From contig NZ_CP013011.1 in the NCBI RefSeq assembly GCF_001412615.1, positions 1,500,001-1,532,000 of the forward strand: a DNA stretch of 32,000 nucleotides. The letters run 5' to 3'. This document shows positions 4,989-30,901 of the stretch, piece by piece (position 1 is the first letter of the stretch; the number at the start of each line of letters is the position of its first letter). The notes under the pieces were generated by a model. That model saw nothing but the letters and a program-made list of their open reading frames with translations, had not been told where the DNA came from and did no database searches. Both the position numbers and the translations under genes were made by a program. Source of the stretch: Pyrodictium delaneyi. GTDB taxonomy: Archaea > Thermoproteota > Thermoprotei_A > Sulfolobales > Pyrodictiaceae.

Positions 4989-5008
4989 GACCCATGTTCT
5001 AATACACT

Positions 5009-5536: not shown

Positions 5537-5742
5537 ATCATATACAGAACTATATAACGCTCATGTGAGAGTATTGAACGTAGGGTGCTTATCTACTAAA
5601 TTGATTTAGGTGTTGCAGGTATTTCCTAGTAGTCAAACAAGCATGTATGCTTCAACTCCGCTAATCACTTGATACATTGCATCTGAGCCTCCACGACTAT
5701 GCCTCATTCTTACGTAGCTAGGCCCGTGCAGCAGCATGCTTC

Positions 5743-5749
5743 TTTAAAT
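5743..5749 (+). promoter_or_regulatory. TATA-like box (TTTAAAT) upstream of ribK
   Basis: TTTAAAT lies 56-62 nt upstream of the ATG at 5805 and overlaps the ORF-track ATG at 5748. This argues that 5748 is not the true start. A GGGAGAG SD-like element lies at 5793-5799. Confidence 0.35.
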
Positions 5750-5804
5750 GTTGTCCTTAGTCGTGTCGGCATCCGGGATAACGAAACACGCCGGGAGAGC
5801 TGAC

Positions 5805-6993: not shown

Positions 6994-7035
6994 GTTATAA
7001 CTTTATACGCTATGACACATCAGCTACTTAATAGT

Positions 7036-7099
7036 ATATTGTACAGTTATTATTAACAATATTATATAATTCGAAATATTGTAAAAAGTATAGTATTGT
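7036..7099. repeat. Phased ATATTGT motif array: direct 7036-7042, inverted 7056-7062, direct 7076-7082, variant GTATTGT 7093-7099
   Basis: Read directly from the sequence. The first three copies start exactly 20 bp apart and form ATATTGT-N13-ACAATAT-N13-ATATTGT. Confidence 0.5.
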
Positions 7100-7194
7100 C
7101 TATTATTCATAAATTTATCCTTATCACCATTAATCTATTTGAACACGCGTTATCGAGCAACCATAATTTTATCTAGCTATAGATTAATAAATAA

Positions 7195-7219
7195 TCATGA
7201 TAATTTTTAATTATGATGA
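7195..7219. promoter_or_regulatory. Imperfect palindrome TCATGATAATT-TTT-AATTATGATGA just upstream of the fdnG SD
   Basis: 11-nt arms with one mismatch, separated by TTT, ending 6 nt before GGAGG. It could be an operator or an mRNA-leader hairpin. Confidence 0.35.
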
Positions 7220-7238
7220 ATGATGGAGGCTCTGCCGA

Positions 7239-11033: not shown

Positions 11034-11068
11034 CCAATTTTCAACACCATGGGGCAGGGTGATCACGC

Positions 11069-11863
11069 ATGACCGAGTACGGGATAGTATTCAACCTCGA
11101 TACATGTATAGGTTGCAGGGCATGCCAGACAGCGTGTAAGGTCTGGAACGGGCTGAAAGCTGAAGAGACTAGCTTCAACCCTGAGGGCTACACCAACCCA
11201 GTAGACCTATCGCCGAACACCTGGATGATAATGGAGTTCCTAGAGGGGTTGATGGGCGATTCACCATTCTGGCTCTTCAAGAAGCGCCAGTGCATGCACT
11301 GTAGCGAGGCACCTTGCGCCAAGGCGTGCCCGGTCAACGCCATAGAGGTGCATCCCGAGGGCGCCGTGGTAATCCGTCCCGACAAGTGCATAGGTTGCCG
11401 CTACTGTATCGAGGCCTGCCCCTACGATGTGCCACGCTACGACCCGATATCGAACAAGGTATACAAGTGTACATTCTGTATCGACCGTGTACAGAATGGC
11501 CTCGCACCCGCATGTGTCGAGGCCTGCCCAACTGATGCACTAGAGTTCGGCCCCTGGGAGGAACTGCTCCAGAAGTACCGCGCCGCCGGCTACGAGGTGT
11601 ACGGAGACAACGTTAACGATTACGTCGGACGCACTCACTACCTCTACGTGACGAGGAAGTTCCGGAACTTTGGAGCCGAGGAGGGCAAGAAGTGGTACGA
11701 GGCTATTGGCTTCCCAGAAAACCCGACAGGAGCACTACCACTCATTGAAGCCGGACGCAACGTTGGTGTAGGTCTTGCAGCGCTAGCAGCTGTAGGTGCA
11801 GTAGCTCACGCCATCTACTGGAGGGCTAAGAGGATCGAGGAGAGGAACAAGACCGAGAAATGA
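11069..11863 (+). CDS. fdnH: Formate dehydrogenase iron-sulfur (beta) subunit, four [4Fe-4S] motifs and a C-terminal TM anchor
   Basis: Cys motifs CIGCRACQTAC, CMHCSEAPCAKACP, CIGCRYCIEACP and CTFCIDR...ACVEACP. C-terminal helix VGVGLAALAAVGAVAHAIYW. SD GGTGATC lies at 11058-11064. Confidence 0.88.
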   Translation: MTEYGIVFNLDTCIGCRACQTACKVWNGLKAEETSFNPEGYTNPVDLSPNTWMIMEFLEGLMGDSPFWLFKKRQCMHCSEAPCAKACPVNAIEVHPEGAVVIRPDKCIGCRYCIEACPYDVPRYDPISNKVYKCTFCIDRVQNGLAPACVEACPTDALEFGPWEELLQKYRAAGYEVYGDNVNDYVGRTHYLYVTRKFRNFGAEEGKKWYEAIGFPENPTGALPLIEAGRNVGVGLAALAAVGAVAHAIYWRAKRIEERNKTEK

Positions 11864-11900
11864 CGTGTTTTACTTACAATCATGAAGGGGGTGTTACATA

Positions 11901-12629
11901 ATGGGTAAGGAGGTTAAACTCTTCAGTGAACTAGAGATATGGGCACATAAACACGCTATACACTTCGCAGCCGCCCTAATACTAACGGGGCTGATAGTCT
12001 CCGCCAACAGCCTGCCAGACCCCCTAGGAGGGTTCTTCGAGTGGCTAGCATATACACTAGGTACACCAGCATCCTACTTTGCTGAAGCCCTCGGGCTTTC
12101 ACCGCTCGAGCAGAGCTATAGCGCCTATAGCCTCGGTGTACAAGTAGCTAGGATAGTCCACCGGCTCGCAGGAATAGGAATGGCGTTCATAGGCCTAGTG
12201 TGGCTCCTAGGCGAGCTACCACGGGCTAGGAAGTGGCAGATATGGCCCGAAGGCGGTCTAGGAGCTGCCGTCAAGAATCTGATAGACTACTATGTAGGAA
12301 AGAAGGAACCACGGTTCGGCAAGTATAACCTCGGCCAGAAACTGTGGATAATAGGTGTAGTCGTTGGCTTTACGCTACTCTTCATAACAGGCATAATAAT
12401 GTGGTTCCGCGACAGTTTCAGCCAAAGCGTGGTAAACACTGCTCATACGCTACACACATGGCTAGCATGGATAAGTATTGCTGGACTAATAATCCACATA
12501 TATCTCGCCATAGGAATACCAGAGCATAGGCCAATGCTGAGAGCCATGTTCCGCACCGGTACTGCACCAGAAGAGTTTGTGAAGAAGCATCACCCATTAT
12601 ACTATGAGAAAATAAGAAGCGAAGACTAA
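11901..12629 (+). CDS. fdnI: Formate dehydrogenase cytochrome b (gamma) membrane subunit
   Basis: 242 aa with 4-5 predicted TM helices. Conserved-looking His are at helix ends (HKHAIHF, RIVHRL, HTLHTW, IIHIYL), as in the FdnI/cytochrome b561 family. SD GGGGGTG lies at 11887-11893. The gene position after fdnH also fits. Confidence 0.8.
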   Translation: MGKEVKLFSELEIWAHKHAIHFAAALILTGLIVSANSLPDPLGGFFEWLAYTLGTPASYFAEALGLSPLEQSYSAYSLGVQVARIVHRLAGIGMAFIGLVWLLGELPRARKWQIWPEGGLGAAVKNLIDYYVGKKEPRFGKYNLGQKLWIIGVVVGFTLLFITGIIMWFRDSFSQSVVNTAHTLHTWLAWISIAGLIIHIYLAIGIPEHRPMLRAMFRTGTAPEEFVKKHHPLYYEKIRSED

Positions 12630-12674
12630 GCTCTCGGCAATACATTGAAACAACTATGCTGCATATACATCCTC

Positions 12675-12696
12675 TATTCTCTTTTTCATATTCTTA
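12675..12696 (+). terminator. T-rich tract (TATTCTCTTTTTCATATTCTT) after fdnI; candidate archaeal terminator
   Basis: Contains T5 at 12682-12686 in a pyrimidine-rich context, 50 nt after the stop. It is followed by AT-rich promoter-like sequence before the next gene. Confidence 0.35.
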
Positions 12697-12741
12697 CCTT
12701 ATGTCGAAGTTTACATTAAAGTTGAGAGTAATATAGATAAG

Positions 12742-13575
12742 ATGGAGATGGTACTAGACATGACTGCAGGGGAAGTTACACCAGGCGCAGATGCCACTAA
12801 AGAATGTAGTCTAGCCACAACGCTTGTAGCAGGACTACGCATAGCAGCAGACTACAAGTACATAATAGAGGTTGACGACAAATACGTCGGCTCTATACAC
12901 ACGAGCCCGAACTACTTGGCTGACGCCATAGCAGGGCTAGCTCTACGCGATGGATTGGCTACCCTAGGCGATCATGTAGAGCTTGTCGAGGTCAAGCCGT
13001 TAGGCGATATGAGCTTCCTAGTTAGGGCTCGACTTGTCAGGGCTATGGCTACGAGCCTTCCCGATGAGAGACCGCTCGACTGGAACGTCATAGAAAGAGT
13101 CTATCGTGACCTGATAAGGTCTGTGCCTAAGGCTCAATGCCCCTTCGCCGTACACACTGTGGCCGTATACGGGATACCTCAAGACGGTGAACCGCGGAGG
13201 TTGATACTCGTCAGTGATGTCAGCCGCCATAGTGCAGTGCTGAAGGCTGCAGGTATGCTCTCGAGACTTGCTAGCTCTGGGAAACTACGTGGTCTTGCAT
13301 TGCTCGCTGTCTCCACAGGGAGGATATCCGGCGACGCTGTAGAGGCTCTGGCAAGGGCTGGAGTCCGGGTCATAGTTGCCAATCATCATCCGTTGTTGAG
13401 TGGCCTTGCAGCCGCTCTTCGCCATGGTGTTGCACTGGTGCTGCGTAGGCCCGATAGCCGAGGCCTCGCAGTCTACACGTCGCCGGAACTGGTAGTTAAT
13501 GCGCCCCTAGTGTTGTCGGTTAAGGAGGCAGGAGAGCCACCTTCTTATGCTGCCTCTATACTGCCGGTGTGCTGA
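12742..13575 (+). CDS. fdhD: FdhD-like formate dehydrogenase accessory protein (divergent; lacks the CxxC sulfur-relay loop)
   Basis: 277 aa. Blocks align by eye with E. coli FdhD: HTSPNYLADAIAGLALRDGL with ASPKDLEYFALGFSLSEGI; CPFAVHTVAVY with GCTHAAAWM; DVSRHSAVLKAAG with DVGRHVALDKLLG; STGRISGDAVEALARAGVRVIVA with [22 protein letters not shown]. Confidence 0.7.
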   Translation: MEMVLDMTAGEVTPGADATKECSLATTLVAGLRIAADYKYIIEVDDKYVGSIHTSPNYLADAIAGLALRDGLATLGDHVELVEVKPLGDMSFLVRARLVRAMATSLPDERPLDWNVIERVYRDLIRSVPKAQCPFAVHTVAVYGIPQDGEPRRLILVSDVSRHSAVLKAAGMLSRLASSGKLRGLALLAVSTGRISGDAVEALARAGVRVIVANHHPLLSGLAAALRHGVALVLRRPDSRGLAVYTSPELVVNAPLVLSVKEAGEPPSYAASILPVC

Positions 13576-13727
13576 ATCTTACCCTGACCCGGCATCAATT
13601 AATAACCCCGTGAATGCACACCATTCTTTATGACAGCCTAAGGGTGTGGCTATGAACACGTATATGACTTCGTGCTTTACTAGCCTAGAGGATTTGTTCT
13701 CTTGTACATAACGCTTAGACTATAGTT

Positions 13728-14666
13728 GTGAGGTTTCGTGTTATGGGTAGTGGGAAGCACGTACTTCTGCGCGACAGATTTCCCGAGATAAGAAGTTGGC
13801 TCGGGAAATTCTCTGAAGAGGACAAGAGGAACGAATCTTCTTACCGCATACTGGAGGCCCTATACGAGGTCCAGGCACGTATAGAGGAGGAGGCTCTGCG
13901 CCGCCTGGAGGAGGCTGGACTAATTGAGGAAGTAGCTAAGGCAGCACGGAAGATAGCATTTCAACGCGTACCTCTCATCATAATTCTTGGTGGTCTCCCT
14001 AAACCGCTTATGGATGAAGAATTTCTGCGCCGCTCGATGCTCGATATAATAGACGCTGTAGCAAGGGAGGGCTACAGTCTCAAAGGTGCTACAGCTTCCC
14101 TCCGCGATCCAGTGGAGAAGGCAGCATTAAGTATCTCTCAGCTCGTTGAAGAGCTATTGGAAGGTCGAGAAGATAGTATCCATGCATGGGCAGGCGCTGT
14201 CTCAGCTGACCGGGACCGTGTTCGGGCGCTGGCCCTTTGGTTAATCCAGCCCTTGCTTAGTGCACTACGCGTAGCTGCTAGCAACGCATTAGGTTGGGTT
14301 CGGGAATACTGGCAGCAAGGTCTTTGTCCAGTCTGTGGTTCTGTCACACGCGTCGGGTACATGAAGGGGGAAGGGAGGAAGCAGTTCCTCCGTTGCCAGG
14401 TCTGCGGAATGGAGTGGGTCTTTCCCCGCGCTCGATGTCCCTATTGTGGCACGGACAAGCCAGGCGATGTGGTATTCTATCAACCTCTGGAGTCTAGGCA
14501 ATGGTTACGGCTTTACTATTGCCGCCATTGCGGAGCCTACTGGAAGATAGTAGATGAGGAGGATGAAGCCGCCGCCAAGAGCGGGCTACCACCAAGAGAA
14601 CTTTACGACGTCTATACTTTTATCCTCGACTCTGTAGCCGAGGCAATGACCTCCAAGAGGCAGTAG
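13728..14666 (+). CDS. fdhE: FdhE formate dehydrogenase maturation protein (four CxxC rubredoxin-like knuckles)
   Basis: C-terminal region GLCPVCGS...FLRCQVCGMEW...RARCPYCG...YYCRHCGAYWK matches the FdhE pattern CPVCGS..RYL.C.LC..EW...R.KC..C......C..C..Y.K. A GTG is at 13728 and an ATG at 13743. Confidence 0.85.
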   Translation: MRFRVMGSGKHVLLRDRFPEIRSWLGKFSEEDKRNESSYRILEALYEVQARIEEEALRRLEEAGLIEEVAKAARKIAFQRVPLIIILGGLPKPLMDEEFLRRSMLDIIDAVAREGYSLKGATASLRDPVEKAALSISQLVEELLEGREDSIHAWAGAVSADRDRVRALALWLIQPLLSALRVAASNALGWVREYWQQGLCPVCGSVTRVGYMKGEGRKQFLRCQVCGMEWVFPRARCPYCGTDKPGDVVFYQPLESRQWLRLYYCRHCGAYWKIVDEEDEAAAKSGLPPRELYDVYTFILDSVAEAMTSKRQ

Positions 14667-19729: not shown

Positions 19730-19886
19730 GGCTTACCTTTACTTGTTCATCTCGTTCTCCCTTTGGTACTGTTACATTGCCTCCTAAGGGCTTGATATGT
19801 ACAATCCATGTCACGCAGTCTACAGACTACCTGGGTCCATTACATCCGCTACATTGTAGCACGTGCTCAACAATGCATCTCGTAAT

Positions 19887-20285
19887 TCAGCGTTTTTCTG
19901 CTGCAAGTGGATCACCTATTAGGCTGGAACGGTTTGCTGTAGCCGGCGGCACGATGTTACTCGTTTTGTAGGCGTGTCGTGGACAGATGTCTACGCAGTG
20001 GTAACAGAACATACAGAGATCGTAATGCACTACCGGATATCGACGTGGCCTCTTAGCATTTTCCTGGCCTGGTAGTAGCTTCATCTCTATCGCTCCCGGC
20101 GGGCACTCTATAGCGCATAGACTACAGCCTATACACTTCTCCACATCAACCACGTGGAGGCCGCGATACCCACCACTAGGAGTTGGGCCGGTTTTTAGGC
20201 CGTATTCTATTGTGGCAGGCCGCCTAGCCAAGTTTGATACGAGTTCACTTAGCATGATAAGTATACGCGGCTTCACAACTTCCAC
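19887..20285 (-). CDS. nuoI: 2x[4Fe-4S] ferredoxin subunit of the membrane-bound hydrogenase/complex-I-like enzyme (NuoI/MbhN-like)
   Basis: CIGCSLCAIECPPGAI and CMFCYHCVDICPRHA, separated by a spacer as in NuoI. It is the last gene of the operon. It has a GTG start. Confidence 0.85.
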   Translation of the reverse strand: MEVVKPRILIMLSELVSNLARRPATIEYGLKTGPTPSGGYRGLHVVDVEKCIGCSLCAIECPPGAIEMKLLPGQENAKRPRRYPVVHYDLCMFCYHCVDICPRHAYKTSNIVPPATANRSSLIGDPLAAEKR

Positions 20286-20290
20286 CCCTT

Positions 20291-21469
20291 CTATTGATCT
20301 GCCCGCCGACGAGCTAGTTGACGTAAGTTCTCTAGACGTTCGCGCCCAGTACGTTCATCAACTACTATAACGCGCTCCATGCATGATATGCAGGGATCAA
20401 GACTTGCTAGTATGACCGGTATATCCGCCAATGTGGCACCTTGGTAGGCTACGAGACTGTTCAGTATGTTGGGGATACTCGGCGTCCTTATCTTTACTCT
20501 ATAAGGCTTAGTGCCGCCCCGACTAACAACATGGTATAGGAGTTCACCACGTGGAGCCTCAACTCGTGATATTGCCTCACCCTCACGGAACCGGCGAGGC
20601 GGAGTCTTCAGACTGTTAATTGGACCGCTTGGCAGTTTTTCTAGCACTTGACGTATAATGTTTATAGACTCTAACGCCTCCTCGAACCGGACCAGCATAC
20701 GGGCGAGTGCATCGCCCTCACTACGTCTAATTACTTGGAAGTCTAGCTCCCCGTACCAAGCATAAGGATCATCGCGTCTGACATCGATATCTACGCCGGA
20801 GCCACGAGCTGTTGGCCCGACAAGTCCATGACTTACGGCCACACTGTACGGTATTACCCCTATGCCTTCAAGCCTACGGCGGAGCAACCTATCGCTTGTA
20901 TAGACTTCCATATAGTATTTTATCCGCTGTTCGAGAATATCCATGCTACGTCTTATCTTCTCTGCTACTTCAGGACTTAGGTCTCGACGAACGCCTCCTG
21001 GCCATACATAATCGGCTATGACTCGGTTTCCTGTGAGCAGCTCCTTTAGGTGCATTACCTTCTCGCGATCCCTCATTATCAGCATGAAGAGGCTCTCAAA
21101 TCCAGCTATCTCTGCAACCACGGCTGCTAGGAGCATGTGACTATGAAGCCTCTCGAGCTCCATTGCTAGGACTCGGAGAGCTTGAGCGCGAGGCGGCGGC
21201 TCGATACCATTTATCTCTTCGATGGCCTGGACATAGCAGTTAGAATGCATCATGTTGCATATACCGCAGACACGTGTCACTATATAGAGGGTTTTTAGGA
21301 ACGTATTGCTCTCAGCGAGCTTCTCTATCCCACGATGGTTATAGCCCGTAACTACCTCTACCCCGACTACGTCTTCACCGTCAACGCGTACACGGAGCAT
21401 AATGGGTTCGTGTAGTGCAGGATGCTGAGGCCCAATAGACACTTCTATTACCGGCATCCCCGTTATCAC
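20291..21469 (-). CDS. nuoD: Group-4 [NiFe]-hydrogenase large subunit (NuoD/MbhL/EchE-like) with an intact Ni-Fe ligand set
   Basis: L1 motif RVCGICNMMH (Cys68 at 21268-21266, Cys71 at 21259-21257). L2 motif DPCISCMER (Cys360 at 20392-20390, Cys363 at 20383-20381). A 26-aa tail VIVVDERTG... follows it. Also GPQHPALHEP and EAPRGEL blocks. GTGA overlap with the upstream gene. Confidence 0.9.
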   Translation of the reverse strand: MITGMPVIEVSIGPQHPALHEPIMLRVRVDGEDVVGVEVVTGYNHRGIEKLAESNTFLKTLYIVTRVCGICNMMHSNCYVQAIEEINGIEPPPRAQALRVLAMELERLHSHMLLAAVVAEIAGFESLFMLIMRDREKVMHLKELLTGNRVIADYVWPGGVRRDLSPEVAEKIRRSMDILEQRIKYYMEVYTSDRLLRRRLEGIGVIPYSVAVSHGLVGPTARGSGVDIDVRRDDPYAWYGELDFQVIRRSEGDALARMLVRFEEALESINIIRQVLEKLPSGPINSLKTPPRRFREGEAISRVEAPRGELLYHVVSRGGTKPYRVKIRTPSIPNILNSLVAYQGATLADIPVILASLDPCISCMERVIVVDERTGRERLENLRQLARRRADQ

Positions 21470-21906
21470 CTCTTATTCCAGTCCTTGCGTAACGGATATT
21501 CTCCAGCTACATCTGGCGGTGTGAAGAACCCTAAGCGGAGACTCTCATTACCCTCAAAGACTACGCCAAAGAGGTCGTAGACCTCTTGTTCATAGGGCAC
21601 TGCAGCGGGGAGTAACAGTGCCAAGCTTGGTGCTCTTGGCTGGCTTCGCGGTACCCGCGTCTTTAGCGTGAGTAGGCTCTTCTCCGGGATAATCCAGAAC
21701 ACATAGTCTAGCTCTATACTGTCCTCTTCAGGGAGATCTATGGCAGTTATCGCTGAGAGGTAAACTCCACGAGGGTAGGCCTCTAGCAAGCTTTTAACTA
21801 CTCCTGGCAGTTTCCAGGGATCATCAATACGTACTTCTAGACGTCGTTGCTTCTTTTCCACAATCTCTACTTTACTGTTCTTCAGCCACAGTTTTAGCTG
21901 CTTCAA
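21466..21906 (-). CDS. nuoC: NuoC/MbhK-like 30-kDa-type subunit
   Basis: 146 aa. YEQEVYDLFGVVFEGN and a R(K)DW-type C-terminus (YPLRKDW) are typical of NuoC/HycE-N/MbhK. It sits between the small and large subunits. Confidence 0.8.
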   Translation of the reverse strand: MKQLKLWLKNSKVEIVEKKQRRLEVRIDDPWKLPGVVKSLLEAYPRGVYLSAITAIDLPEEDSIELDYVFWIIPEKSLLTLKTRVPRSQPRAPSLALLLPAAVPYEQEVYDLFGVVFEGNESLRLGFFTPPDVAGEYPLRKDWNKR

Positions 21907-22405
21907 TTCTGTCAGCCTCCTCTCGGATACTCTTAAGGAGCCTAACTATGGCCTGGAGTATCGCGTCAGGACGCGGCGGGCATCCGGGAATATAGAGATC
22001 CACCGGCACGACGTTGTCGGCTCCACCAACTACACTGTAGCTATTGCGGAACACATTGCCAGAGATAGCACATGTACCAACTGCAACCACGTGTTTTGGG
22101 TCAGGTGTCTGTTCGTAGAGACGACGAAGTCTCTCAGCAGACTTCTTGGTTAGTGCACCCGTCACAATGATTATGTCGGCATGCCGAGGGTTCGGGGCCA
22201 GTCTTATACCGAAGCGTTCTGGATCGTAGAGGGGTGTTAGGGCCGCAAGAACCTCTATGTCACAGCCGTTGCATGCGCCGGTGTTAAAGTGGAGTAACCA
22301 GGGTGAACGTGAGAGCATTCTTAAGGTGAAAGAACTCCCACGATGCTTCACATTTTGCAAGGGGATATACGCCTCCGCCAAATAGAGTATATAGCTACGA
22401 AACAT
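21872..22405 (-). CDS. nuoB: Group-4 hydrogenase small subunit (NuoB/MbhJ-like), [4Fe-4S] N2-type cluster
   Basis: FNTGACNGCDIE (hydrogenase-type CxxC rather than the complex-I CC), GTCAISG and IPGCPPRP. The start is either 22405 (a TATA-like box lies ~32 nt upstream) or the internal ATG at 22318 (MLSRSPWLLHFNTG). Confidence 0.85.
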   Translation of the reverse strand: MFRSYILYLAEAYIPLQNVKHRGSSFTLRMLSRSPWLLHFNTGACNGCDIEVLAALTPLYDPERFGIRLAPNPRHADIIIVTGALTKKSAERLRRLYEQTPDPKHVVAVGTCAISGNVFRNSYSVVGGADNVVPVDLYIPGCPPRPDAILQAIVRLLKSIREEADRIEAAKTVAEEQ

Positions 22406-22436
22406 AGTTGATTAGGGTTACCCCGTAGAAGCCGGG

Positions 22437-22444
22437 ATAAAGAA
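22437..22444 (-). promoter_or_regulatory. TATA-like element (TTCTTTAT on the minus strand) in the 74-nt gap between the membrane-arm genes and the B-C-D-I module
   Basis: This is the only sizeable gap inside the 11-gene cluster. The T/A element sits about 32 nt upstream of the ATG at 22405, which fits a short-leader internal promoter. Confidence 0.25.
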
Positions 22445-22479
22445 CCCGCTGCCACAGCATACACGATTACACACCCCCG

Positions 22480-23880
22480 CTAGCGGATTAGACTGACTAT
22501 ACTGTCCACGATGGGGCCCGGCAATACACCTAGAGCTATTGCGGCCGCTGCTAGGATGAGGAGTGGTACAAGAAGCCTAGACGGAGCCTCAGAAGGCAGT
22601 GTACGAGGAACCGTTACCGACGGATGCCAGAATACTCGTAGCCAGAACCTAAGCGCATAGGCTGCAGAGGATAATACAGCAAGTGCTAGCGCAGCGACTG
22701 CTGCTATGCCGTAGACCCGCCCTACCCCTAGGACTATGAGTAGCTCACCTGGGAACATTGCAAAGGGCGGTGCCCCGGCCAGACTCATGGCTGCTACGAA
22801 GGCTGCGAAGGCTGTGACGGGCATGCTGCGGGCGAAAACTCCCATGCTGCGTATGTCGTCGCTTCCGCTCTGCTTCTCGAGCACTCCTGCTACGAGGAAG
22901 AAGAGGGGCTTTACGATGCCGTGTGCCAGGGCTGCTAGTACTCCACCAGCGGCCGCCAGGGGATGGCCAGCGGCAAGCCCGGCGTAGATTATGCCGGAGT
23001 GCCCAATGCTGCTGTAGGAGGCTATGAAGCCTAACCGGTTAGCTGAGAGGGCTCGGAGGGCTCCCACTATTGCCGAGGTTATGCCCAGCCACATCGCGGC
23101 CTCTAGCATGGCTGTGGTTTGGTGGGGCCAGTGGAATCCTGTCGTGAACCTGTACATTCCGTAGGCGCCGATGCTTGTGACCACGCCTGCGAGTAAGCCT
23201 GCCGCGAATGGGGGCACTGAGGTGTAGGTACGTGGGAGCCATGTGTGGAATGGGAAGACACCGAGTTTTATTGCAAAAGCTATAAGTGCCAATGGTAGCG
23301 CTATTGTTGATAGGCTAGCATCCACGACATTGCCTCCGAAGACCGGGGCATTGGCTGCTAGTAGGGCGCCTACCGCTACGAGAAGTAGCAGGGAGCCTGC
23401 ATGCATGTATATGAAGAATTCTGGGGCTCTTCTAGGGCTCCAGAGCCAAACTAGCACCGTGGACACTATGAGTACTAGTTCCCAGAACACATAGAAGAGC
23501 GGCAAGCTATAGGCGTAGACGAGCCCAATAACCGAAGCATGTATAGCAGTTACAACTATCTCAAAGACTGCCTCCCCTCCTCTACATGTTACGCCAGCTC
23601 TGCCTGCATATACTATGACTGTTATCGCTACTAGGGCAGAGAGGGCTGCGAAGAGCTTCGAGACAGTGTCTAGCCCCATACACACTGGAGCGTTGACGAC
23701 AGCTAACCATGAACGACATACAGCGTCGCCGTTGGCAAGCAGCGTAATAATAGCGGACACTGTTATCGAGATTATTGAGGCTGCCCTCCTACCAGCTAGG
23801 ACTGCTGCAGCACCTAATCCAAGCACTATTAGCGACGTCGCATACGCTACTGGTACGCCGAGCACGTTAGCCACCTCCAA
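22480..23880 (-). CDS. nuoN: Antiporter-like subunit (NuoN/NuoM/MrpD family)
   Basis: 466 aa, about 14 TM helices. FAIKLGVFPFHTWLPRTY matches the K..g..P.H.WLPdA signature. It overlaps the upstream gene by 14 nt. Confidence 0.8.
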   Translation of the reverse strand: MEVANVLGVPVAYATSLIVLGLGAAAVLAGRRAASIISITVSAIITLLANGDAVCRSWLAVVNAPVCMGLDTVSKLFAALSALVAITVIVYAGRAGVTCRGGEAVFEIVVTAIHASVIGLVYAYSLPLFYVFWELVLIVSTVLVWLWSPRRAPEFFIYMHAGSLLLLVAVGALLAANAPVFGGNVVDASLSTIALPLALIAFAIKLGVFPFHTWLPRTYTSVPPFAAGLLAGVVTSIGAYGMYRFTTGFHWPHQTTAMLEAAMWLGITSAIVGALRALSANRLGFIASYSSIGHSGIIYAGLAAGHPLAAAGGVLAALAHGIVKPLFFLVAGVLEKQSGSDDIRSMGVFARSMPVTAFAAFVAAMSLAGAPPFAMFPGELLIVLGVGRVYGIAAVAALALAVLSSAAYALRFWLRVFWHPSVTVPRTLPSEAPSRLLVPLLILAAAAIALGVLPGPIVDSIVSLIR

Positions 23881-25168
23881 GCATGGGGACTAGGCCGGGA
23901 TAGACTCCCAGCACGAGTAGAAGCAGCGAATACGCAAGGAGAGGGAGCCAGGGGACGTTGACGCCATGGGATACTTGATATCCACCCATTATCAAGTAAC
24001 GGAAGATGTAGACCGCTGATACTAGGAAGAAGATTGCCGATACTACTGCTAGCCAAGTGTATCCAGCTGCAGCGAATGCTGCTACTACTGAGAGTTTCGC
24101 GGCAAACCCATAGAGTGGCGGCGTCCCGGCTAGGCTGAGTAACCCCGTCACTTGTGCTATTTTGCCGATGCTTGTCTTTTCGTAACGGTGAGCAGTTATT
24201 ACCAGGGCTATGGACATGTTGCTAGCTGTTATGAAGTATATCGGGACTAGAGGGTCGCGTATACCAGATAGCGCGTAGACGACTGCGAGCAGGACAGTGT
24301 AGCCAGCGTCGCTCACCATACTGTAGCCTATCATGCGACGTAGCTCCTTCTGAGCTAGAGCAGAGAATTCGCCCACAACCATGCTCGCCATTGCTAGGAG
24401 GACAAGGAGCGCCGCGATTATTGGGCCGAGCAAGACTCCCGAGGAGGCTATCAGCTTGAAGAACACCAATAATACTGGAGCATCTACAAGTAGGATGGCA
24501 GTAACCACTCCGAGCAAGTGAGCGCCTTGGACTACATCGGGCAGCCACATATAGAATGGTGCAAGTCCGGCCTCAAGCGCCAGCCCCGCTGTGAGGAAGA
24601 CGAGGCCAAGGAGCACAGGGAGAGTCGCCCATGACACCCCTCCCAGGGGTGCTTCGGTAAAGCTGTGAAAGCCCTGACTGTAGAGTAGCCCCATGCCAAC
24701 AATTATGAGGGCTGTCGCCAGTATCGACGAGTAAAGGTACTTCACTGCAACTTCTCCACTACGCCGGCCTCCAAGACTATAGAGACCGGCTAAGGCGGCG
24801 GCAGCCGTCTCTATACCGGCGAGCAAGGTTAGTAGGCTAGCCGAGTAGAGCACGAGGAACCCGCCTAGAACGGCTAAGATAACTAGCGGTGCCCTCACCT
24901 TATCTAGCTCATCTACTAGACTGGCTAGGGCTAGTATCTCTGCCAGTAGGAGGAGTACCGCCATAGCATTATACTCCGTCGTCACGTATAGGATGTTTAG
25001 GCCAGCATACCTTACCATACCCTGGGGCAATACCCAAACAATTACCATCATGTAGATCATTGTGGCTAGTGTCGTGGCTGCTGCTGCACGGCGCGGAAGG
25101 ACAGCAGCGATAGCTGCGGCGGCTAGAGGAACGCCGGCTACCAGGGTTAGTAGCTGGTATACGTCCAT
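23867..25168 (-). CDS. nuoM: Antiporter-like subunit (NuoM/NuoN/MrpD family), divergent at conserved charged residues
   Basis: 433 aa and polytopic. LAGIETAAA is the TM5 Glu block. LALEAGLAPFYMWLPDVVQGA aligns with the NuoN block FK...PFH.W.PDVYQGA, but has Glu199 and Tyr206 where Lys and His are expected. Confidence 0.75.
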   Translation of the reverse strand: MDVYQLLTLVAGVPLAAAAIAAVLPRRAAAATTLATMIYMMVIVWVLPQGMVRYAGLNILYVTTEYNAMAVLLLLAEILALASLVDELDKVRAPLVILAVLGGFLVLYSASLLTLLAGIETAAAALAGLYSLGGRRSGEVAVKYLYSSILATALIIVGMGLLYSQGFHSFTEAPLGGVSWATLPVLLGLVFLTAGLALEAGLAPFYMWLPDVVQGAHLLGVVTAILLVDAPVLLVFFKLIASSGVLLGPIIAALLVLLAMASMVVGEFSALAQKELRRMIGYSMVSDAGYTVLLAVVYALSGIRDPLVPIYFITASNMSIALVITAHRYEKTSIGKIAQVTGLLSLAGTPPLYGFAAKLSVVAAFAAAGYTWLAVVSAIFFLVSAVYIFRYLIMGGYQVSHGVNVPWLPLLAYSLLLLVLGVYPGLVPMLGGG

Positions 25169-25170
25169 GG

Positions 25171-27018
25171 CTAACCACCCATACTTACCAGGGCGACTAT
25201 GATGAGTAGAACGAGACCGGCTAGATAGACTGCATAGTAGTAGCTCAGCTTACCACCGTGTAAGCTGCGTAGCATGCCTCCAAGCTGTAACGAGAACGAA
25301 GTAGCAGCATCAACAACGGCGTCAACGATTTCTACGAGACCTCTAGCCGATAGATTCACAGCAAACAGTATCGAGGGCGCTATTATCCTTGTGTAGATCC
25401 TGTCTATGTAGAAGCCCTCTAGTGCTGCACGCTGTAGAGCCGCTAGCCTAAGGGTTGCCACTTTACGGGTGTACAACAAGAATGCCGTCCCAAGACCAGC
25501 AGCTGCAGCAGCGAGGCTAGCAGCTACCGCTAATGGCCCAGCTTCGCTCGGCTGGAAGGGTGGTACGACTAGGAGGGGCGAGACTAGAGTCATCACTATC
25601 AAGAATAGAAGTGGAGCAGCCATAAATGCTGGTATCTCCTCTACCCTTATCTCCTTGTACCTTGGCTCTGCGAAGACGAGATAGTAGACGAGCTTCACCG
25701 AATAGAACGCCGTGGCCACCGACGCTGCTAGGAGAACTAGTGCCACGAGAGGCTCAGTTGATAAGGCTACTCCTATTATCGCCTCTTTACTCCATGCACC
25801 GTTGAAAGGCGGTATACCGGCTAGCGCTGCCGCCCCTGCTACTAGGCTTGCAGCGAGGAGTGGACTACGCCGGGCAGCACCTGCCACATAGCGCATATCC
25901 CTTGCAATCTCTGGACCAAAGATGGGCTCAAACTCGTGTATAACGACACCTACGGCTAGGAATAGAAGGGCCTTGAACACGGCGTGACTAGCTACATGCT
26001 CTAACACTGCTACGAGACCCTCTACGCCTACTCTCCACGTGAGCCCTAACGCTGCAAACATGAAACCTAGCTGGCTTATAGTCGAGTAGGCTAGCAGCCT
26101 CTTTGCGTCATACTGTGCTGCTGCCGAGACGGCTGCATAAAGGGCCGTAGCTGCACCCACAAGCACTACCAGCTGCATGAAGCTCTGGGGCAGAGCGACG
26201 CTACCGCCTATGAGGGCAAGAGAGGCAATCCTTAGAACAAGGTAGATACCCGCCTTGACCATTGTGGCCGCGTGTATCAGCGCCGAGACAGGAGTAGGGC
26301 CCTCCATGGCGTCGGGGAGCCAGACATGCAGCGGCAGCTGCGCACTCTTCGCCACCGCCCCGACAAAGGCTAGCAAGAGGAACAACTTTAGAGCAGCCAG
26401 ACCAGATGCTGCGAGTACGGGGTACTCGACCGAGCCGAGAATAGTATAGACATAGACTATGCCTACTAGGAGGGCTGTGTCGCCTATCCTTGTGGTCAGG
26501 AAAGCCTTGACGCCAGCTGCTGAGGCGCGTGGCGAGTAGTAATGTGCTATCAATGCAAAGCTACAGAGCCCGACCATCTCCCAGAACATGTAAAGGGCTA
26601 CTAGGCTACCAGTCAGCACAAGACCCTCCATTGCGCCGAGGAAGAGTACCAGAAGGCTATAGTACCGCGAGTACCCCGGATCCTCAGCCATGTAGCTGTA
26701 CGAGTACAATATCACTAGGAGGCCCACGAGGCCTACTATCAGCGAGAAGAGCGCCGCGAGCCCGTCGATATAGAGCGAGAGGCTAAACCCACCACCCGGA
26801 ACCAAGGGGAGACTAGGCCCTTCTATATAGAAGGCTGTTTCGGGAGCCTTGCTGTAGATTAGCAGTGCGAGCATCAGTACAGTAGAGCCCGTGGCTAGCG
26901 CGAGGCCCCATGCAGCGCGGCGGCCGAGGAAGCGTCCCGCCAGGGCTACGACTGGGGATGCTGCGAGAGGTGTCAGTATAATCGCGTAGCCTAGAGTAGT
27001 CAAGCTAGCCGTTTCCAT
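25171..27018 (-). CDS. nuoL: NuoL/MrpA-like antiporter subunit with a C-terminal lateral-helix extension
   Basis: 615 aa. AVAKSAQLPLHVWLPDAMEGPTPVSALIHAATMVKAGIYLVLR is the canonical NuoL/MrpA block. The C-terminal GFYIDRIY...VEIVDAVVDAA amphipathic stretch plus a final TM helix resembles the NuoL HL helix and TM16. Confidence 0.88.
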   Translation of the reverse strand: METASLTTLGYAIILTPLAASPVVALAGRFLGRRAAWGLALATGSTVLMLALLIYSKAPETAFYIEGPSLPLVPGGGFSLSLYIDGLAALFSLIVGLVGLLVILYSYSYMAEDPGYSRYYSLLVLFLGAMEGLVLTGSLVALYMFWEMVGLCSFALIAHYYSPRASAAGVKAFLTTRIGDTALLVGIVYVYTILGSVEYPVLAASGLAALKLFLLLAFVGAVAKSAQLPLHVWLPDAMEGPTPVSALIHAATMVKAGIYLVLRIASLALIGGSVALPQSFMQLVVLVGAATALYAAVSAAAQYDAKRLLAYSTISQLGFMFAALGLTWRVGVEGLVAVLEHVASHAVFKALLFLAVGVVIHEFEPIFGPEIARDMRYVAGAARRSPLLAASLVAGAAALAGIPPFNGAWSKEAIIGVALSTEPLVALVLLAASVATAFYSVKLVYYLVFAEPRYKEIRVEEIPAFMAAPLLFLIVMTLVSPLLVVPPFQPSEAGPLAVAASLAAAAAGLGTAFLLYTRKVATLRLAALQRAALEGFYIDRIYTRIIAPSILFAVNLSARGLVEIVDAVVDAATSFSLQLGGMLRSLHGGKLSYYYAVYLAGLVLLIIVALVSMGG

Positions 27019-27021
27019 AGT

Positions 27022-27315
27022 CTACCCCCTTAGTTCGTCTAACTCGTCCACACTCCTAGCCCCATGGAGCCTTGAGGCGCGGAGGGCGAGCGCAGCTGCT
27101 AGGGCCATTATACCGGTGTCGAGAACTAGTATGAAGAGGTAGAAGCCTAGGCTACCACCCCACATGGCGAGGGATGCTGCTGCAGAAGCCGACACAAGTT
27201 CGAGGCCGACCAGTACGCGGAGAAAGTTAGAGTACCGAGTGAGCATGTAGAGGCCTGCAGAGGCTATAGCTGCTAGTGCTATTGAGTAGAATATGCTAGT
27301 CTCCACCGTCTTCAC
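27022..27315 (-). CDS. nuoK: NuoK-like small membrane subunit
   Basis: 97 aa with three TM helices. LVGLELVSASAAASLA resembles the NuoK L.slEim.na block with its membrane Glu. It sits between the J-like and L-like genes. Confidence 0.7.
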   Translation of the reverse strand: MKTVETSIFYSIALAAIASAGLYMLTRYSNFLRVLVGLELVSASAAASLAMWGGSLGFYLFILVLDTGIMALAAALALRASRLHGARSVDELDELRG

Positions 27316-27730
27316 CTCCCGCCACGACTCTTAACGCTAGCAACACTGAGGCTAGCGGAGCAGATGCCAGGGCTACTGCTAGAGGAGCCCATTCCTCTGC
27401 ACTGAGCTCCCGGGGCTGCTGTATATGAGAGCCAGCGATGGCTAGGGCTACGAGCACCACGAGTGCACCTATAGCCCCCATACCCGGGACGACGCCCCGC
27501 TTCGAGCCGCCCAACTCGGGAGCCAGGAAGCCTGCAGCTGCTAGAAACCCGGCTGCGAGTGAGAGCTGTACAACGGCTGCAACAACTTCGCCCATATCAA
27601 TAAACATTAACGCGAGGAGCACCAGAGCTGCGGTGGAGGAGAGTAACACTCGCTCGTCTCGCCCCGTGGTGGCAGCATAGAACGCCGCTACAGCCGCCGC
27701 AGCTGCTAGTACTCCTGCGAAGATACTCAC
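27296..27730 (-). CDS. nuoJ: NuoJ-like membrane subunit
   Basis: 144 aa and hydrophobic. GEVVAAVVQLSLAAGFL loosely matches the NuoJ F.a..Q..vY.GA block. The call rests largely on the canonical H-J-K-L gene order. Confidence 0.55.
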   Translation of the reverse strand: MSIFAGVLAAAAAVAAFYAATTGRDERVLLSSTAALVLLALMFIDMGEVVAAVVQLSLAAGFLAAAGFLAPELGGSKRGVVPGMGAIGALVVLVALAIAGSHIQQPRELSAEEWAPLAVALASAPLASVLLALRVVAGGEDGGD

Positions 27731-27737
27731 TCTGTTA

Positions 27738-28694
27738 TCACCCCTTAACTATTAGTGCTAGAGCCGCAATTATGAAGGAGCATGGCACTATGGCAGTCCA
27801 TGAGGCTCTCCCCACGTCTACGAGCCGTAGCCTCGGAGCTGCTGCATCTACTAGTGTAGCAGCAATGGCAACTGCTAGCCCTGTCCCCAGGAGCGCAAGG
27901 AGCCCTGCTATGCCGCTCCAGGGCGGCGCGAGGAACAGCGTCGTGTAGTAGTATAGCGAGACAGTCTCGTGGATACGATGCGTCAAGTGTGCAAACGCGA
28001 GGCGACGACCACTCATATCCGCCATTAAGCCACCTGCAATCTCGGTCTCAGCCTCTGCCACGCTAAACGGGTCCTTGCCTGCCTCGGCTAGGATCAGCAC
28101 GAAGCCTAGCACAGCCCCCGCTAGCCACAACGGCAAGAACACCGGCTCAGCAGCTAGGCTGCTCCACAGTGTCCTCCTTATCTCCGCGAGCGAGAGCGAG
28201 CCTGTAACAGCATAGACTATACCAAGCAGGGAGAGGAGAGCAACTTCATAGCTTGCTAGGAGCCCTAGCAGACGGAACCCACCAATGACACTATAAGGGC
28301 TATGAGTCGAGAAGGCTGCCAGGTAGAGGAGGCCAAGCGAGAGGGTTAAACACGCCGCAACGAGCACTGCATCGCCATGAAAGCTAAAGCCTATAGCACC
28401 GCTCCAGGGGATGAAAAGCGAGGCAAACGCGGCTAGGCTTAGACTCCATATCAGCGCTGCTGGCACTGCAACCGGGTCCTGGCTCCGGGGCGCAAGATCC
28501 TCCTTACCCAGCAGCTTCAAGAGGTCTATGAGCGGCTGTAGTAAACCTCCTAATCCAGTATAGCTAGGACCTATACGGCTCTGCAGCCTGGCTACAACTT
28601 TACGCTCAACAGCTTCGAGCAACAGCGCTAGCGCTACCACGAACGTTAGGCCAGGGTATACAGTAGCCTTCACGACCAGGTCTAGGGGATTCAT
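27738..28694 (-). CDS. nuoH: NuoH/MbhM-like membrane subunit
   Basis: ERKVVARLQSRIGPSYTGLGGLLQPLIDLLKLLGKED matches the NuoH ERK..a..Q.R.GPN..G..GLLQP.aD..KL..KE block. PFSVAEAETEIAGG matches PFD.pEaEsEL. ATGA overlap with the upstream gene. Confidence 0.88.
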   Translation of the reverse strand: MNPLDLVVKATVYPGLTFVVALALLLEAVERKVVARLQSRIGPSYTGLGGLLQPLIDLLKLLGKEDLAPRSQDPVAVPAALIWSLSLAAFASLFIPWSGAIGFSFHGDAVLVAACLTLSLGLLYLAAFSTHSPYSVIGGFRLLGLLASYEVALLSLLGIVYAVTGSLSLAEIRRTLWSSLAAEPVFLPLWLAGAVLGFVLILAEAGKDPFSVAEAETEIAGGLMADMSGRRLAFAHLTHRIHETVSLYYYTTLFLAPPWSGIAGLLALLGTGLAVAIAATLVDAAAPRLRLVDVGRASWTAIVPCSFIIAALALIVKG

Positions 28695-29014
28695 AACGTG
28701 TGTCTCCTCTTGAGTATACTACGGGCAGTTATGGCCGAGAAGACGCCGGCAACCATAAAGAGGAGAGCCGATACGTTGCTAGAACCACCAGCTAGTAGTA
28801 CTGCTACGGGCACTGCTTCCACCGCTGCAAAGAGGAGTAGCAGCCAAGGGTATGGCGGCGATGCTTCTCGAAGAGGCTCTGTCTTTTCTCCACACATGTA
28901 GGGCTCTACTGCTTCTCCTTCTCTACGTGGAGCTGGTGCCAAACTTTTTGATGCAAGATAGTAGCTCGCCGATACAACCATTATTAGTACAAATGCAATG
29001 ACCAGCTCTATCAT
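28691..29014 (-). CDS. nuoA: NuoA-like small membrane subunit; first gene of the operon
   Basis: 107 aa with three TM helices. EPYMCGEKTEP matches the NuoA PYECG..P loop, followed by LLLFAAVEAVPV (compare F.lFDvE). Confidence 0.65.
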   Translation of the reverse strand: MIELVIAFVLIMVVSASYYLASKSLAPAPRREGEAVEPYMCGEKTEPLREASPPYPWLLLLFAAVEAVPVAVLLAGGSSNVSALLFMVAGVFSAITARSILKRRHTL

Positions 29015-29290: not shown

Positions 29291-30901
29291 GTGCCACCGA
29301 GGATAGCACTTGTAACAGGTAAGCGGGCCAGGAATAGGGTAGAGAGCGTTGTCTCCGATATACGTAGAGCCACCGGATGGACTATAGATGTCGTCGAAGC
29401 ACCCATTGATGTGGCATCGTTGATACCTCGGGACATACTGGAGGATATACTTAGGGGCTTAAGGGGCAGGTATGACCTCATTATAGTTCCCGGCACCCTT
29501 AGCTATAGCCTCGATGGACTTGAAGAGGCTGCCGGAGCCCCCGTGGTCCGAGGACCACCGGATCCGGAGAGCTTGAGGCTGATAGCCGAGCTAGGCGAAG
29601 ATGGGCTCCAGAGGCTGGCAGAGCAAGGAAGTCTCAGCCCCTCACTCATGCTGGATAAGTGGCTCGAAGAGCTGCGTAGACATCACCTATCCACGCCCAG
29701 TGTCGAGGTCTGCAGCGTCCGTGTACCCGTGAGGCCTCCACCCATCGTGGTGGCTGCCGAAGTTTTTGTCCGACAAGGTATATCGGCCGAGGATATAGCT
29801 GGCAGGGCCGAAGAGCTGCTGGGGCGCGGCGCTGACATTATTGTAGCCGGGTTTGGACAGAGTTGGGAACGCGAAGAGGCTCTACGGGTACTACGTGTAC
29901 TCGTGGACAGAATCGGGCCCGTGGCACTTGACACGCCTGATAAAGTTTTAGCACGCGATGCTGCACGGGAAGGACTTAACTGCCTCACGCTATCGCTTAG
30001 CGAGGGTGACCCACTCTTTAATGAACTGCCTCGTGGCAGCCAGGTTGTCGTCATACCTCTAGATTCCTCGTTCAATGTCCCTAGGAGCGTGAGCAAGAGA
30101 GTAGAGCTTCTAGAGCGTCTCGTAAAGCGTGCACAGCAGAAGGGCCTCGTACCCATAGCCGATCCTATGGTTGACCCACCGGGATGGGGACTTGCAAGGA
30201 GCGTAGCAGCTTACCTTGAGGCTTCTGAGAGGCTCCCCGAGACGCCGCTGCTAGCTGGCATAGCTAACGCTTACGAGCTGATAGACGCTGATAGCCACGG
30301 CCAGGTGGCTGTGTTGACACAGTTGTTCGCCGAGGCCGGCGCCTCGTTGATGCTAGTCACCGAGGAGAGTAGGAAGACCGTTATGGCGACCACAGAGGCA
30401 GCCATAGCGGCAACCATGACTAGCGTATCTCTACTGAAGAATAGGTGGCCGAAGGACTTAGGTATAGACTTGCTCTACGCCAAGGAGAAGAGACCTAGCG
30501 GAGACCAACCCCGGCTGCCCAGGCGCCCCCGACTATCCCTAGACGCCAATACCCTAGCAGCCTGGTACGGGTTCCGTCAGGACCGCACTGGCAGCCACCT
30601 CATAGTAGTCGAAGGCGACACTATAAGAGACGTGTATATCGGGAGGAGGGGCGTCATAGAGCTGCGGGGCAGCAACGGCCGAGATCTCTACAAGGCTGTA
30701 GCCTATCTTGGACTCGCCAGCGAGCCTAGTCATTACGCTTATCTGGGCTACGAGTTGTGCCGCGCAGAGCTAGCAGCAATCATGAAGAGGAGCTATGTAC
30801 AGGACGAGCCGCTCCTAACGCCACCGTGGATGCGATGTAGCTGGTATAGTGCTAGAGCCATGAGCCCCATTAAACCTATAGGACAAAGAGAGAAAAGATG
30901 A
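29291..30901 (+). CDS. Dihydropteroate-synthase-like (pterin-binding) multidomain protein, archaeal type
   Basis: 536 aa with a GTG start. The N-terminal RIALVTGKRA...YDLIIVPG domain, a central TIM-like region with RGADIIVAGFG, and the C-terminal YAYLGYELCRAELA block resemble my recollection of the archaeal DHPS-related family (TIGR00284-type, DUF4346 C-terminus). This was not verified. Confidence 0.4.
   Translation: MPPRIALVTGKRARNRVESVVSDIRRATGWTIDVVEAPIDVASLIPRDILEDILRGLRGRYDLIIVPGTLSYSLDGLEEAAGAPVVRGPPDPESLRLIAELGEDGLQRLAEQGSLSPSLMLDKWLEELRRHHLSTPSVEVCSVRVPVRPPPIVVAAEVFVRQGISAEDIAGRAEELLGRGADIIVAGFGQSWEREEALRVLRVLVDRIGPVALDTPDKVLARDAAREGLNCLTLSLSEGDPLFNELPRGSQVVVIPLDSSFNVPRSVSKRVELLERLVKRAQQKGLVPIADPMVDPPGWGLARSVAAYLEASERLPETPLLAGIANAYELIDADSHGQVAVLTQLFAEAGASLMLVTEESRKTVMATTEAAIAATMTSVSLLKNRWPKDLGIDLLYAKEKRPSGDQPRLPRRPRLSLDANTLAAWYGFRQDRTGSHLIVVEGDTIRDVYIGRRGVIELRGSNGRDLYKAVAYLGLASEPSHYAYLGYELCRAELAAIMKRSYVQDEPLLTPPWMRCSWYSARAMSPIKPIGQREKR

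Follow-up and report, generated by a model that had tools for sequence, protein, structure and literature searches.

We analyzed a 32,000-nt stretch of the genome of the archaeon Pyrodictium delaneyi (contig NZ_CP013011.1, positions 1,500,001 to 1,532,000; the whole stretch is referred to as the window), which carries an operon predicted to combine a [NiFe] hydrogenase with a membrane arm of the complex I type. Eleven codirectional open reading frames (ORFs) on the minus strand, named here after the Nuo subunits they resemble, run from position 29014 to position 19887 in the order A-H-J-K-L-N-M-B-C-D-I. They are tightly packed: five junctions overlap and the others leave 2–7 nt, except for 74 nt between M and B, a distance measured from maximal ORFs. 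An earlier sequence-only reading of the locus had described eleven codirectional genes, which is borne out by the minus-strand ORFs filling 19887–29014, and had assigned to them homologs of all 11 core subunits of complex I; nine of these assignments were verified with hidden Markov models (HMMs), whereas A was reached only transitively and J only weakly. The canonical H-J-K-L-M-N order given in that reading does not hold, as the best family matches give L-N-M. The NADH module, in contrast, is absent as had been stated, with no NuoE-, NuoF-, or NuoG-like ORF among the larger ORFs of the window. Scans of the window for tRNAs and for Rfam families were both empty. The window was equated with Pyrde_1506–Pyrde_1535 of strain Su06 by comparing the succession of its genes (RuBisCO, the Fdh-like genes, NADH oxidase, GDPD) with the published proteome table.

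The large subunit D matches PF00346 together with the N-terminus of PF00374, and it retains both hydrogenase cysteine pairs. The L1 stretch RVCGICNMMH (C68 and C71) aligns with RMCGICSFSH of MbhL (6cfw_L) and RVCGICGFAH of HycE (7z0s_E), and the L2 stretch DPCISCMER (C360 and C363) with DPCLSCTDR of MbhL and DPCYSCTDR of HycE, so that all four cysteines fall column for column on the Ni-Fe ligands of these two enzymes; in the same alignment, Nqo4 has no cysteine at the columns of either pair. D also conforms to the L1 motif C[GS][ILV]C[AGNS]xxH as quoted in PMC7886697, and near its C-terminus to the L2 pattern [DE][PL]Cx[AGST]Cx[DE][RL]. The position of MbhL Glu21 is retained. The column of the tyrosine in the Nqo4 stretch RMDYLHSFAH, which we take to be the quinone-ligand Tyr87, is occupied in D by Gly69, inside the intact L1 motif, and His20 of D stands at the position of Nqo4 His38; Tyr87 and His38 are presumably both quinone-site residues of Nqo4. 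After DPCISCMER, D continues with a 26-aa tail that aligns with the HycE residues beyond the L2 motif of HycE; in Escherichia coli, the HycE tail is cleaved off in maturation. L1, L2, and a C-terminal tail of 20–34 aa are kept in all of the 120 nearest D homologs. Among solved structures, D scores best against MbhL (251 bits), followed by Nqo4 (234), HycE (224), and MbsL (219), and is thus about as distant from hydrogenases as from complex I. Its highest NCBIfam score is against NuoD, with 358 bits at a cutoff of 360.

The remaining subunits of the hydrogenase block agree with this picture. B (PF01058, 123 bits) contains exactly four cysteines (C45-x-x-C48, C112, and C142), arranged as CNGC...GTCAISG...GCPP, and the hydrogenase-type CNGC motif that had been pointed out before is thus among the only four cysteines of the protein. 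This pattern is of the CxxC...C...CPP type with a single proximal [4Fe-4S] site, and CNGC is present in 70 of 82 homologous clusters; NuoB of complex I has a tandem CC. C matches PF00329 with 76 bits, and I matches Fer4 families as a two-cluster ferredoxin domain with two CxxCxxCxxxCP motifs. All 11 genes are intact, and the ratio of nonsynonymous to synonymous substitution rates (dN/dS) relative to P. abyssi ranges from 0.02 to 0.24 across the operon, with the lowest values for D (0.02), B, and I; synonymous sites are near saturation in this comparison and C gave no estimate. The genes of the operon are under purifying selection.

On the side of the membrane arm, H matches PF00146 with 191 bits, its best solved relatives being MbhM (78 bits) and ND1 (70 bits), and K matches PF00420 with 35.4 bits at a cutoff of 26.1. 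Three antiporter-like subunits of 615, 433, and 466 aa had been proposed, the largest of the NuoL type with a C-terminal extension. The largest, L, indeed matches the NuoL model NF005141 from end to end (423 bits, residues 9–611 on profile positions 4–611 of 615); its residues 73–606 align with residues 60–601 of Nqo12, and its C-terminal region matches Nqo12 and ND5. The best family of the 433-aa protein is TIGR01770 (NuoN), and that of the 466-aa protein TIGR01972 (NuoM; 206 bits). From the ligand motifs together with the HMM-verified L, M, N, H, and K, the predicted complex is a genuine group-4 [NiFe] module on a complex-I-type arm, in which three antiporter-like subunits are present and an NADH module is not.

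It should be noted that of the three small membrane subunits only K passes its family cutoff, whereas A and J fail when searched directly with HMMs. For A, there was no Pfam match, the NCBIfam model of NuoA gave E = 0.023, and neither a phmmer search of the PDB nor a PDB search with a five-sequence profile returned anything significant. However, phmmer matches A (1e-4 to 3e-7) to the gene that precedes B in clusters with Fpo order, where four of the five tested genes pass PF00507, and it contains an ND3-like conserved PYxCGE loop; its designation as a NuoA/ND3-like subunit is in this way supported only indirectly. J gave no significant match in Pfam, NCBIfam, or the phmmer search of the PDB, nor with a five-sequence profile against the PDB. 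It has only 5–9 relatives in libraries of billions of proteins, and an exhaustive profile search recovered nine proteins, with no Pfam domain in any of the five that were scanned. An hhalign comparison with PF00499-positive Bathyarchaeia genes gave a probability of 45–49% (E about 2e-4), and one member of the J family reached E = 0.015 against PF00499. A structure predicted from a six-sequence alignment has five helices at a predicted local distance difference test score (pLDDT) of 55, and a Foldseek search with this model matched only designed helical repeats and was uninformative. By its position and its modeled topology, J is likely a NuoJ-like protein.

Complexes of this composition have been described before. 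Loh et al. (2021; PMC7886697) defined Hfo as an 11-subunit Fpo-like [NiFe] hydrogenase of the Bathyarchaeia with D in HydDB subgroup 4g, listed the P. delaneyi cluster as a predicted Hfo-like complex with an "almost identical" organization, and placed its large subunit sister to 4g-6. These authors proposed a membrane-potential-driven reduction of ferredoxin by H2 and discussed the reverse direction as well, subgroup 4g being generally presumed to evolve H2 (PMC7886697). Judged from its motifs and gene content, the operon very probably specifies an energy-converting [NiFe] hydrogenase of the Hfo type (HydDB subgroup 4g). Both the enzyme type and the functional idea are already known from the literature at the in silico level only, and the novelty that the sequence-only reading implied for an intermediate between hydrogenases and complex I falls away, given that Hfo was defined and the P. 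delaneyi cluster named in that study.

The residues that are decisive for pumping in complex I were located with HMMER alignments to NuoM and NuoN of E. coli and with two MAFFT alignments, all in agreement. L keeps the canonical set of a glutamate in transmembrane helix (TM) 5 and lysines in TM7, TM8, and TM12 (E/K/K/K). In the M-like subunit, the TM5 glutamate (E144), the TM7 lysine (K234), and the TM12 glutamate (E407) are kept, and the position of K265 in TM8 is a serine. The N-like subunit keeps the TM5 glutamate and the TM12 lysine, and has a glutamate at the position of K217 in TM7 and Asp/Val at that of K247 in TM8. The same M and N pattern was found in every Pyrodictiaceae-type operon and in the Bathyarchaeia Hfo (loci L044, L059, L062, and L081–L085 together); in this comparison, the noncanonical residues appear to be a shared signature of Hfo-type arms. 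They do not prove that pumping has been lost. The sequence-only reading had argued that the driving force from ferredoxin to H+ is too small for three or four pump sites and that the enzyme may therefore run in reverse. Three antiporter-like subunits are indeed encoded, but it is doubtful that they provide three or four pump sites, because the M-like subunit is without the TM8 lysine and the N-like subunit has Glu/Asp in place of the TM7 and TM8 lysines. Moreover, the thermodynamic argument cuts both ways: were the ion-to-electron ratio fixed and high, the forward reaction could not proceed, and the reverse reaction would be wasteful too. With the altered M and N subunits, this ratio may be lower.

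To place the operon among its relatives, we surveyed gene order in 80 genome loci and six fetched contigs. The order A-H-J-K-L-N-M-B-C-D-I is confined, in the surveyed loci, to Pyrodictiaceae-like relatives, namely P. abyssi (L081), three contigs from metagenome-assembled genomes (MAGs) or assemblies, and a partial Hyperthermus MAG, with D proteins 66–89% identical to that of the window. The next-closest D proteins (54–62% identity) belong to MAGs of the Desulfurococcales/Sulfolobales, where the clusters are of the Mbh type; one of these (L002) has the order B-C-D-I, MrpF, MrpG, MbhD, MnhB, a NuoK/MrpC-like subunit, MrpE, one antiporter-like subunit, and H. The Bathyarchaeia Hfo loci have the order A-B-(C)D-H-I-J-K-L-M-N, and their D is 45–51% identical to that of the window. 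In phylogenetic trees, D, B, and I of the Pyrodictiaceae branched as the sister of the Mbh-type group in 49–50 of 50 bootstraps; C did so in 28 of 50, and the position of H was not resolved; these are simple neighbor-joining (NJ) distance trees, calculated without maximum likelihood, without a HydDB reference set, and without the other Nuo cluster of P. delaneyi (Pyrde_1473–1481). On the other hand, the Bathyarchaeia Hfo gives higher scores than the Mbh-type clusters for H, L, M, N, K, and A. The M–B junction, a possible place for an internal promoter or a possible recombination joint, leaves 57–160 nt between called genes in four orthologous operons (L081, L082, L083, and L085), with the other junctions tight. 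Taken together, the D, B, and I trees, the scores of the arm subunits, and the conserved M–B gap suggest that the operon consists of two modules with different histories. We tentatively propose, as a possibility below even odds, that the Pyrodictiaceae enzyme is a chimera of an Mbh-type B-C-D-I block of Desulfurococcales ancestry and a complex-I-type A-H-J-K-L-N-M arm, the two blocks still being visible around the conserved gap; the charge inversion of N (Lys to Glu and Lys to Asp) and the loss of the central lysine of M, both shared with the Bathyarchaeia Hfo, belong to this arm. If so, Mrp-type and complex-I-type ion modules would have been swapped on the same redox head, and arms linked to hydrogenases may use a charge relay different from that of complex I, perhaps of lower stoichiometry or reversed.

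In the mechanism that best explains these features, electrons would be exchanged between the Ni-Fe site and a soluble carrier of low potential, for which ferredoxin is the best candidate, by way of the two [4Fe-4S] clusters of I and the single cluster of B; the Ni-Fe site of D would sit where complex I binds quinone. Through H, A, J, and K, the redox reaction would be linked to the movement of ions in the N, M, and L arm. As to direction, an ion gradient would be spent on driving electrons from H2 to ferredoxin, which would then serve ferredoxin-dependent biosynthesis and CO2 fixation; a precedent is given by Ech, Eha, and Ehb, which reduce ferredoxin with H2 using an ion gradient. This direction is favored by the finding that P. 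delaneyi does not grow without H2 and has pyruvate and 2-oxoglutarate:ferredoxin oxidoreductases (PMC8105010), and by the same proposal having been made for Hfo (PMC7886697). We would call the direction from H2 to ferredoxin at the cost of the gradient an even proposition on its own, and we lean slightly toward the explanation as a whole, comprising an Hfo-type enzyme, the ferredoxin path, the coupling, and this direction.

A number of observations weigh against this explanation. The M-like and N-like subunits lack amino acids on which pumping depends in complex I, which bears on the coupling stoichiometry, and the NuoJ call is weak. The same operon is found in P. abyssi, which is a heterotroph according to the title of Pley et al. 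(1991) as given in a reference list. Maturation is covered only in part: for P. delaneyi, hypA and hypCDEF have been reported, and no hypB (PMC5556600), but a HycI-like protease gene of this species was found neither in the window nor among the matches of a database search. A gene for such a protease (PF01750, above cutoff), the linkage of which speaks for the hydrogenase identity, directly follows I in P. abyssi (L081 11549–12022) and in one MAG (L082 11532–11969), and 27 of 86 loci have a HycI-like gene no more than 10 kb away from D; in P. delaneyi, I is followed by a gap of 158 bp (19730–19886), and a tblastn search of the whole window revealed no HycI remnant. The database search with the P. 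abyssi protease returned eight matches, none of them from P. delaneyi, a weak negative given that the search was word-indexed. Furthermore, the tandem mass tag (TMT) proteome tables of P. delaneyi cultures that received H2, yeast extract, and either nitrate or ferrihydrite (PMC8105010, supplementary file 2) do not contain Pyrde_1519–1533, and nothing is listed between Pyrde_1518 and Pyrde_1534. The enzyme is thus absent or below detection in H2-grown cells on nitrate or ferrihydrite, the only conditions examined. According to the authors of that study, biosynthesis in these cultures was fed by yeast extract, and CO2 was not fixed (PMC8105010); the nondetection is equally compatible with an anabolic role specific to autotrophy, with a fermentative role, and with a silent operon. 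Finally, we found in the literature no biochemical data on any Hfo or subgroup 4g enzyme, and no biochemical or structural work on Hfo later than Loh et al. (2021). On the supporting side, a second, canonical-looking Nuo cluster is present in the P. delaneyi genome (PMC5556600), and eight of its subunits (within Pyrde_1473–1481) are listed in the same proteome (PMC8105010); the operon described here is therefore not the respiratory complex of the cell.

Given the presence of the operon in P. abyssi, described as a heterotroph, an H2-evolving role is equally conceivable. The same enzyme would in this case work in the opposite direction, oxidizing ferredoxin from the oxidation of peptides or 2-oxoacids, evolving H2 and exporting ions as Mbh does in Pyrococcus, and would come into play at low H2 or in the presence of organic substrates. 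We rate this as the less probable direction. In its favor, Mbh-type clusters of the Desulfurococcales/Sulfolobales MAGs, equipped with a full Mrp module, form the sister group of B, C, D, and I, the operon occurs in the Hyperthermus MAG as well as in P. abyssi, its proteins were not detected in H2-grown P. delaneyi, strain Hulk oxidizes peptides (PMC5556600), and H2 evolution is what is generally presumed for subgroup 4g (PMC7886697). Against this stands the H2 requirement of the type strain for growth (PMC8105010). The driving force from ferredoxin to H+ would moreover support one to two ions per H2, which is ill-suited to a full three-module arm, an objection that falls if M and N are not independent pumps.

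Improbable in our view is that P. delaneyi in particular carries a silent or decaying copy of the operon, with the dedicated maturation protease lost and no active enzyme made. The gap after I, at the place where P. abyssi has its protease gene, the weakly negative search for a close protease homolog, and the absence of all 11 proteins from the proteome would agree with such a loss; on the other hand, all 11 ORFs are intact with all metal ligands kept and dN/dS values of 0.02–0.24, the orthologous operons L083 and L085 are likewise without a nearby protease gene, and the other hydrogenases of the genome presumably have proteases. Very unlikely, finally, is a complex-I- or Mbs-like oxidoreductase with quinone, sulfur, or another acceptor in which the cysteines are relics, since the NuoD score of D just below cutoff and its His20 at the Nqo4 His38 position are outweighed by the conservation of the four Ni-Fe cysteines, the C-terminal tail, and a linked HycI protease across the family, by Gly69 in the column of the presumed Nqo4 Tyr87, and by CxxC instead of tandem CC in B.

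The coordinates of the operon and of neighboring features are collected in table 1.

Table 1. Features of the hydrogenase operon and its surroundings, in window coordinates.
Feature	Position	Strand	Remarks
A, NuoA/ND3-like, 107 aa	28691-29014	minus	First operon gene
H, NuoH/ND1/MbhM-like, 318 aa	27738-28694	minus	PF00146
J-like, putative NuoJ-like, 144 aa	27296-27730	minus	Weakly supported; placed between H and K
K, NuoK/ND4L-like, 97 aa	27022-27315	minus	PF00420
L, NuoL/ND5-like antiporter-like subunit, 615 aa, C-terminal extension	25171-27018	minus	NF005141
N-like, NuoN/ND2-like antiporter-like subunit, 433 aa	23867-25168	minus	TIGR01770
M-like, NuoM/ND4-like antiporter-like subunit, 466 aa	22480-23880	minus	TIGR01972
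M-B intergenic gap, 74 nt	22406-22479	minus	Between membrane-arm block and hydrogenase block
B, predicted hydrogenase small subunit, NuoB/MbhJ-like, 177 aa as maximal ORF	21872-22405	minus	PF01058
C, NuoC/MbhK-like, 146 aa	21466-21906	minus	PF00329
D, predicted [NiFe] hydrogenase large subunit, NuoD/MbhL-like, 392 aa	20291-21469	minus	L1 and L2 motifs
I, NuoI/MbhN-like, two [4Fe-4S] sites, 132 aa	19887-20285	minus	Fer4 families; last gene
RuBisCO large-subunit gene	10-1347	plus	Pyrde_1506
819-aa protein	1439-3898	plus	Peptidase C25 (gingipain-like) domain
Region of lowered G+C	4001-8000		About 0.455-0.48
Five-gene molybdopterin oxidoreductase cluster	7239-14666	plus	Pyrde_1511-1515
Tat-signal molybdopterin enzyme of this cluster, 1264 aa	7239-12629	plus
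536-aa protein	29291-30901	plus	DUF6513 and pterin-binding DUF4346; Pyrde_1534

Divergent from the operon lies the gene of the 536-aa DUF6513/DUF4346 protein, which was detected in the proteome; the same neighbor adjoins the operon of P. abyssi (L081 534–2171). Further away, a five-gene cluster encodes the Tat-signal molybdopterin oxidoreductase, a four-cluster iron-sulfur subunit, a cytochrome b subunit, an FdhD-like, and an FdhE-like protein. Three of its genes (Pyrde_1511–1513) are the candidate ferric reductase "Frc", induced on ferrihydrite with a log2 fold change of about 6 to 11, and no formate dehydrogenase activity was measured in the same study (PMC8105010). A link between this molybdopterin enzyme and the hydrogenase in the manner of a formate hydrogenlyase was considered and rejected: the enzyme is exported, five unrelated genes on the opposite strand lie in between, it is absent from the neighborhood of the P. 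abyssi operon, and it is the ferrihydrite-induced "Frc" candidate. The RuBisCO large subunit was detected in the published proteome, and the window shows no genes for its partners in the Calvin cycle. The gingipain-like domain is unexpected for a hyperthermophilic archaeon. The dip in G+C content, compared with about 0.50–0.585 in the remaining window, covers genes for a HAD hydrolase, an unassigned ORF, a CTP-dependent riboflavin kinase, and a MobA-like transferase.

At the level of sequence, no closer bridge from energy-converting hydrogenases to respiratory complex I is known than the Hfo-type enzymes. Unlike the Bathyarchaeia for which Hfo was defined, P. delaneyi and P. abyssi are cultivated hyperthermophiles and may provide material for biochemistry and cryo-electron microscopy. 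Such material could help to clarify how a three-module arm is driven by, or itself drives, a Ni-Fe site in the quinone pocket, what the ion-to-electron ratio is, and whether the altered M and N subunits pump. The enzyme is, besides, a candidate source of reduced ferredoxin for anabolism in H2-oxidizing Pyrodictiaceae. With the type already described, the interest that remains in this operon lies in the cultivable organism, the seemingly mosaic history of the modules, and the noncanonical pump residues.

Compared with known systems, the operon shares with E. coli Hyf/formate hydrogenlyase (group 4a, 7Z0S) a large subunit with a C-terminal tail, that of HycE aligning with that of P. delaneyi. 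Hyf has three antiporter-like subunits as well and, to our knowledge, no NuoA homolog; the P. delaneyi operon differs in having neither a formate dehydrogenase nor HycB/HycF-type subunits, and HycE scores below MbhL and Nqo4 as a match of D. With complex I and the 11-subunit Nuo/Fpo-like complexes, it shares the same eleven core subunit types, NuoH, K, M, and N being recognized by complex I models. It departs from them in the predicted Ni-Fe site of D in place of quinone, in the CxxC rather than tandem CC of B, and in the Glu/Lys/Lys/Lys(Glu) set, which is canonical in L only and not in M or N. The Mbh of P. furiosus (group 4d, 6CFW) provides the best solved matches of D (MbhL, 251 bits) and H (MbhM, 78 bits), and its partner ferredoxin would also be the expected partner of the P. 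delaneyi enzyme. However, Mbh-type clusters have one antiporter-like subunit together with MrpE/F/G, MnhB, and MbhD, as seen in L002, whereas no Mrp-type family was matched in the P. delaneyi operon with Pfam or NCBIfam, and NuoA, the J-like subunit, K, L, M, and N are found instead. The Bathyarchaeia Hfo of subgroup 4g-6 differs from P. delaneyi in its Fpo/Nuo-like order, which neither the window nor the five orthologous operons have, in a single ORF of 529–557 aa at the place of D with no separate C in several loci, where C and D are separate in P. delaneyi, and in the grouping of the P. delaneyi B, C, D, and I with Mbh-type clusters in the NJ trees. It has the same eleven subunit types with L1 and L2 intact and no NADH or F420 input module, the eleven subunits of P. 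delaneyi agreeing with the definition of Hfo as lacking FpoFO and NuoEFG (PMC7886697), and it shows the same pattern of key residues in L, M, and N.

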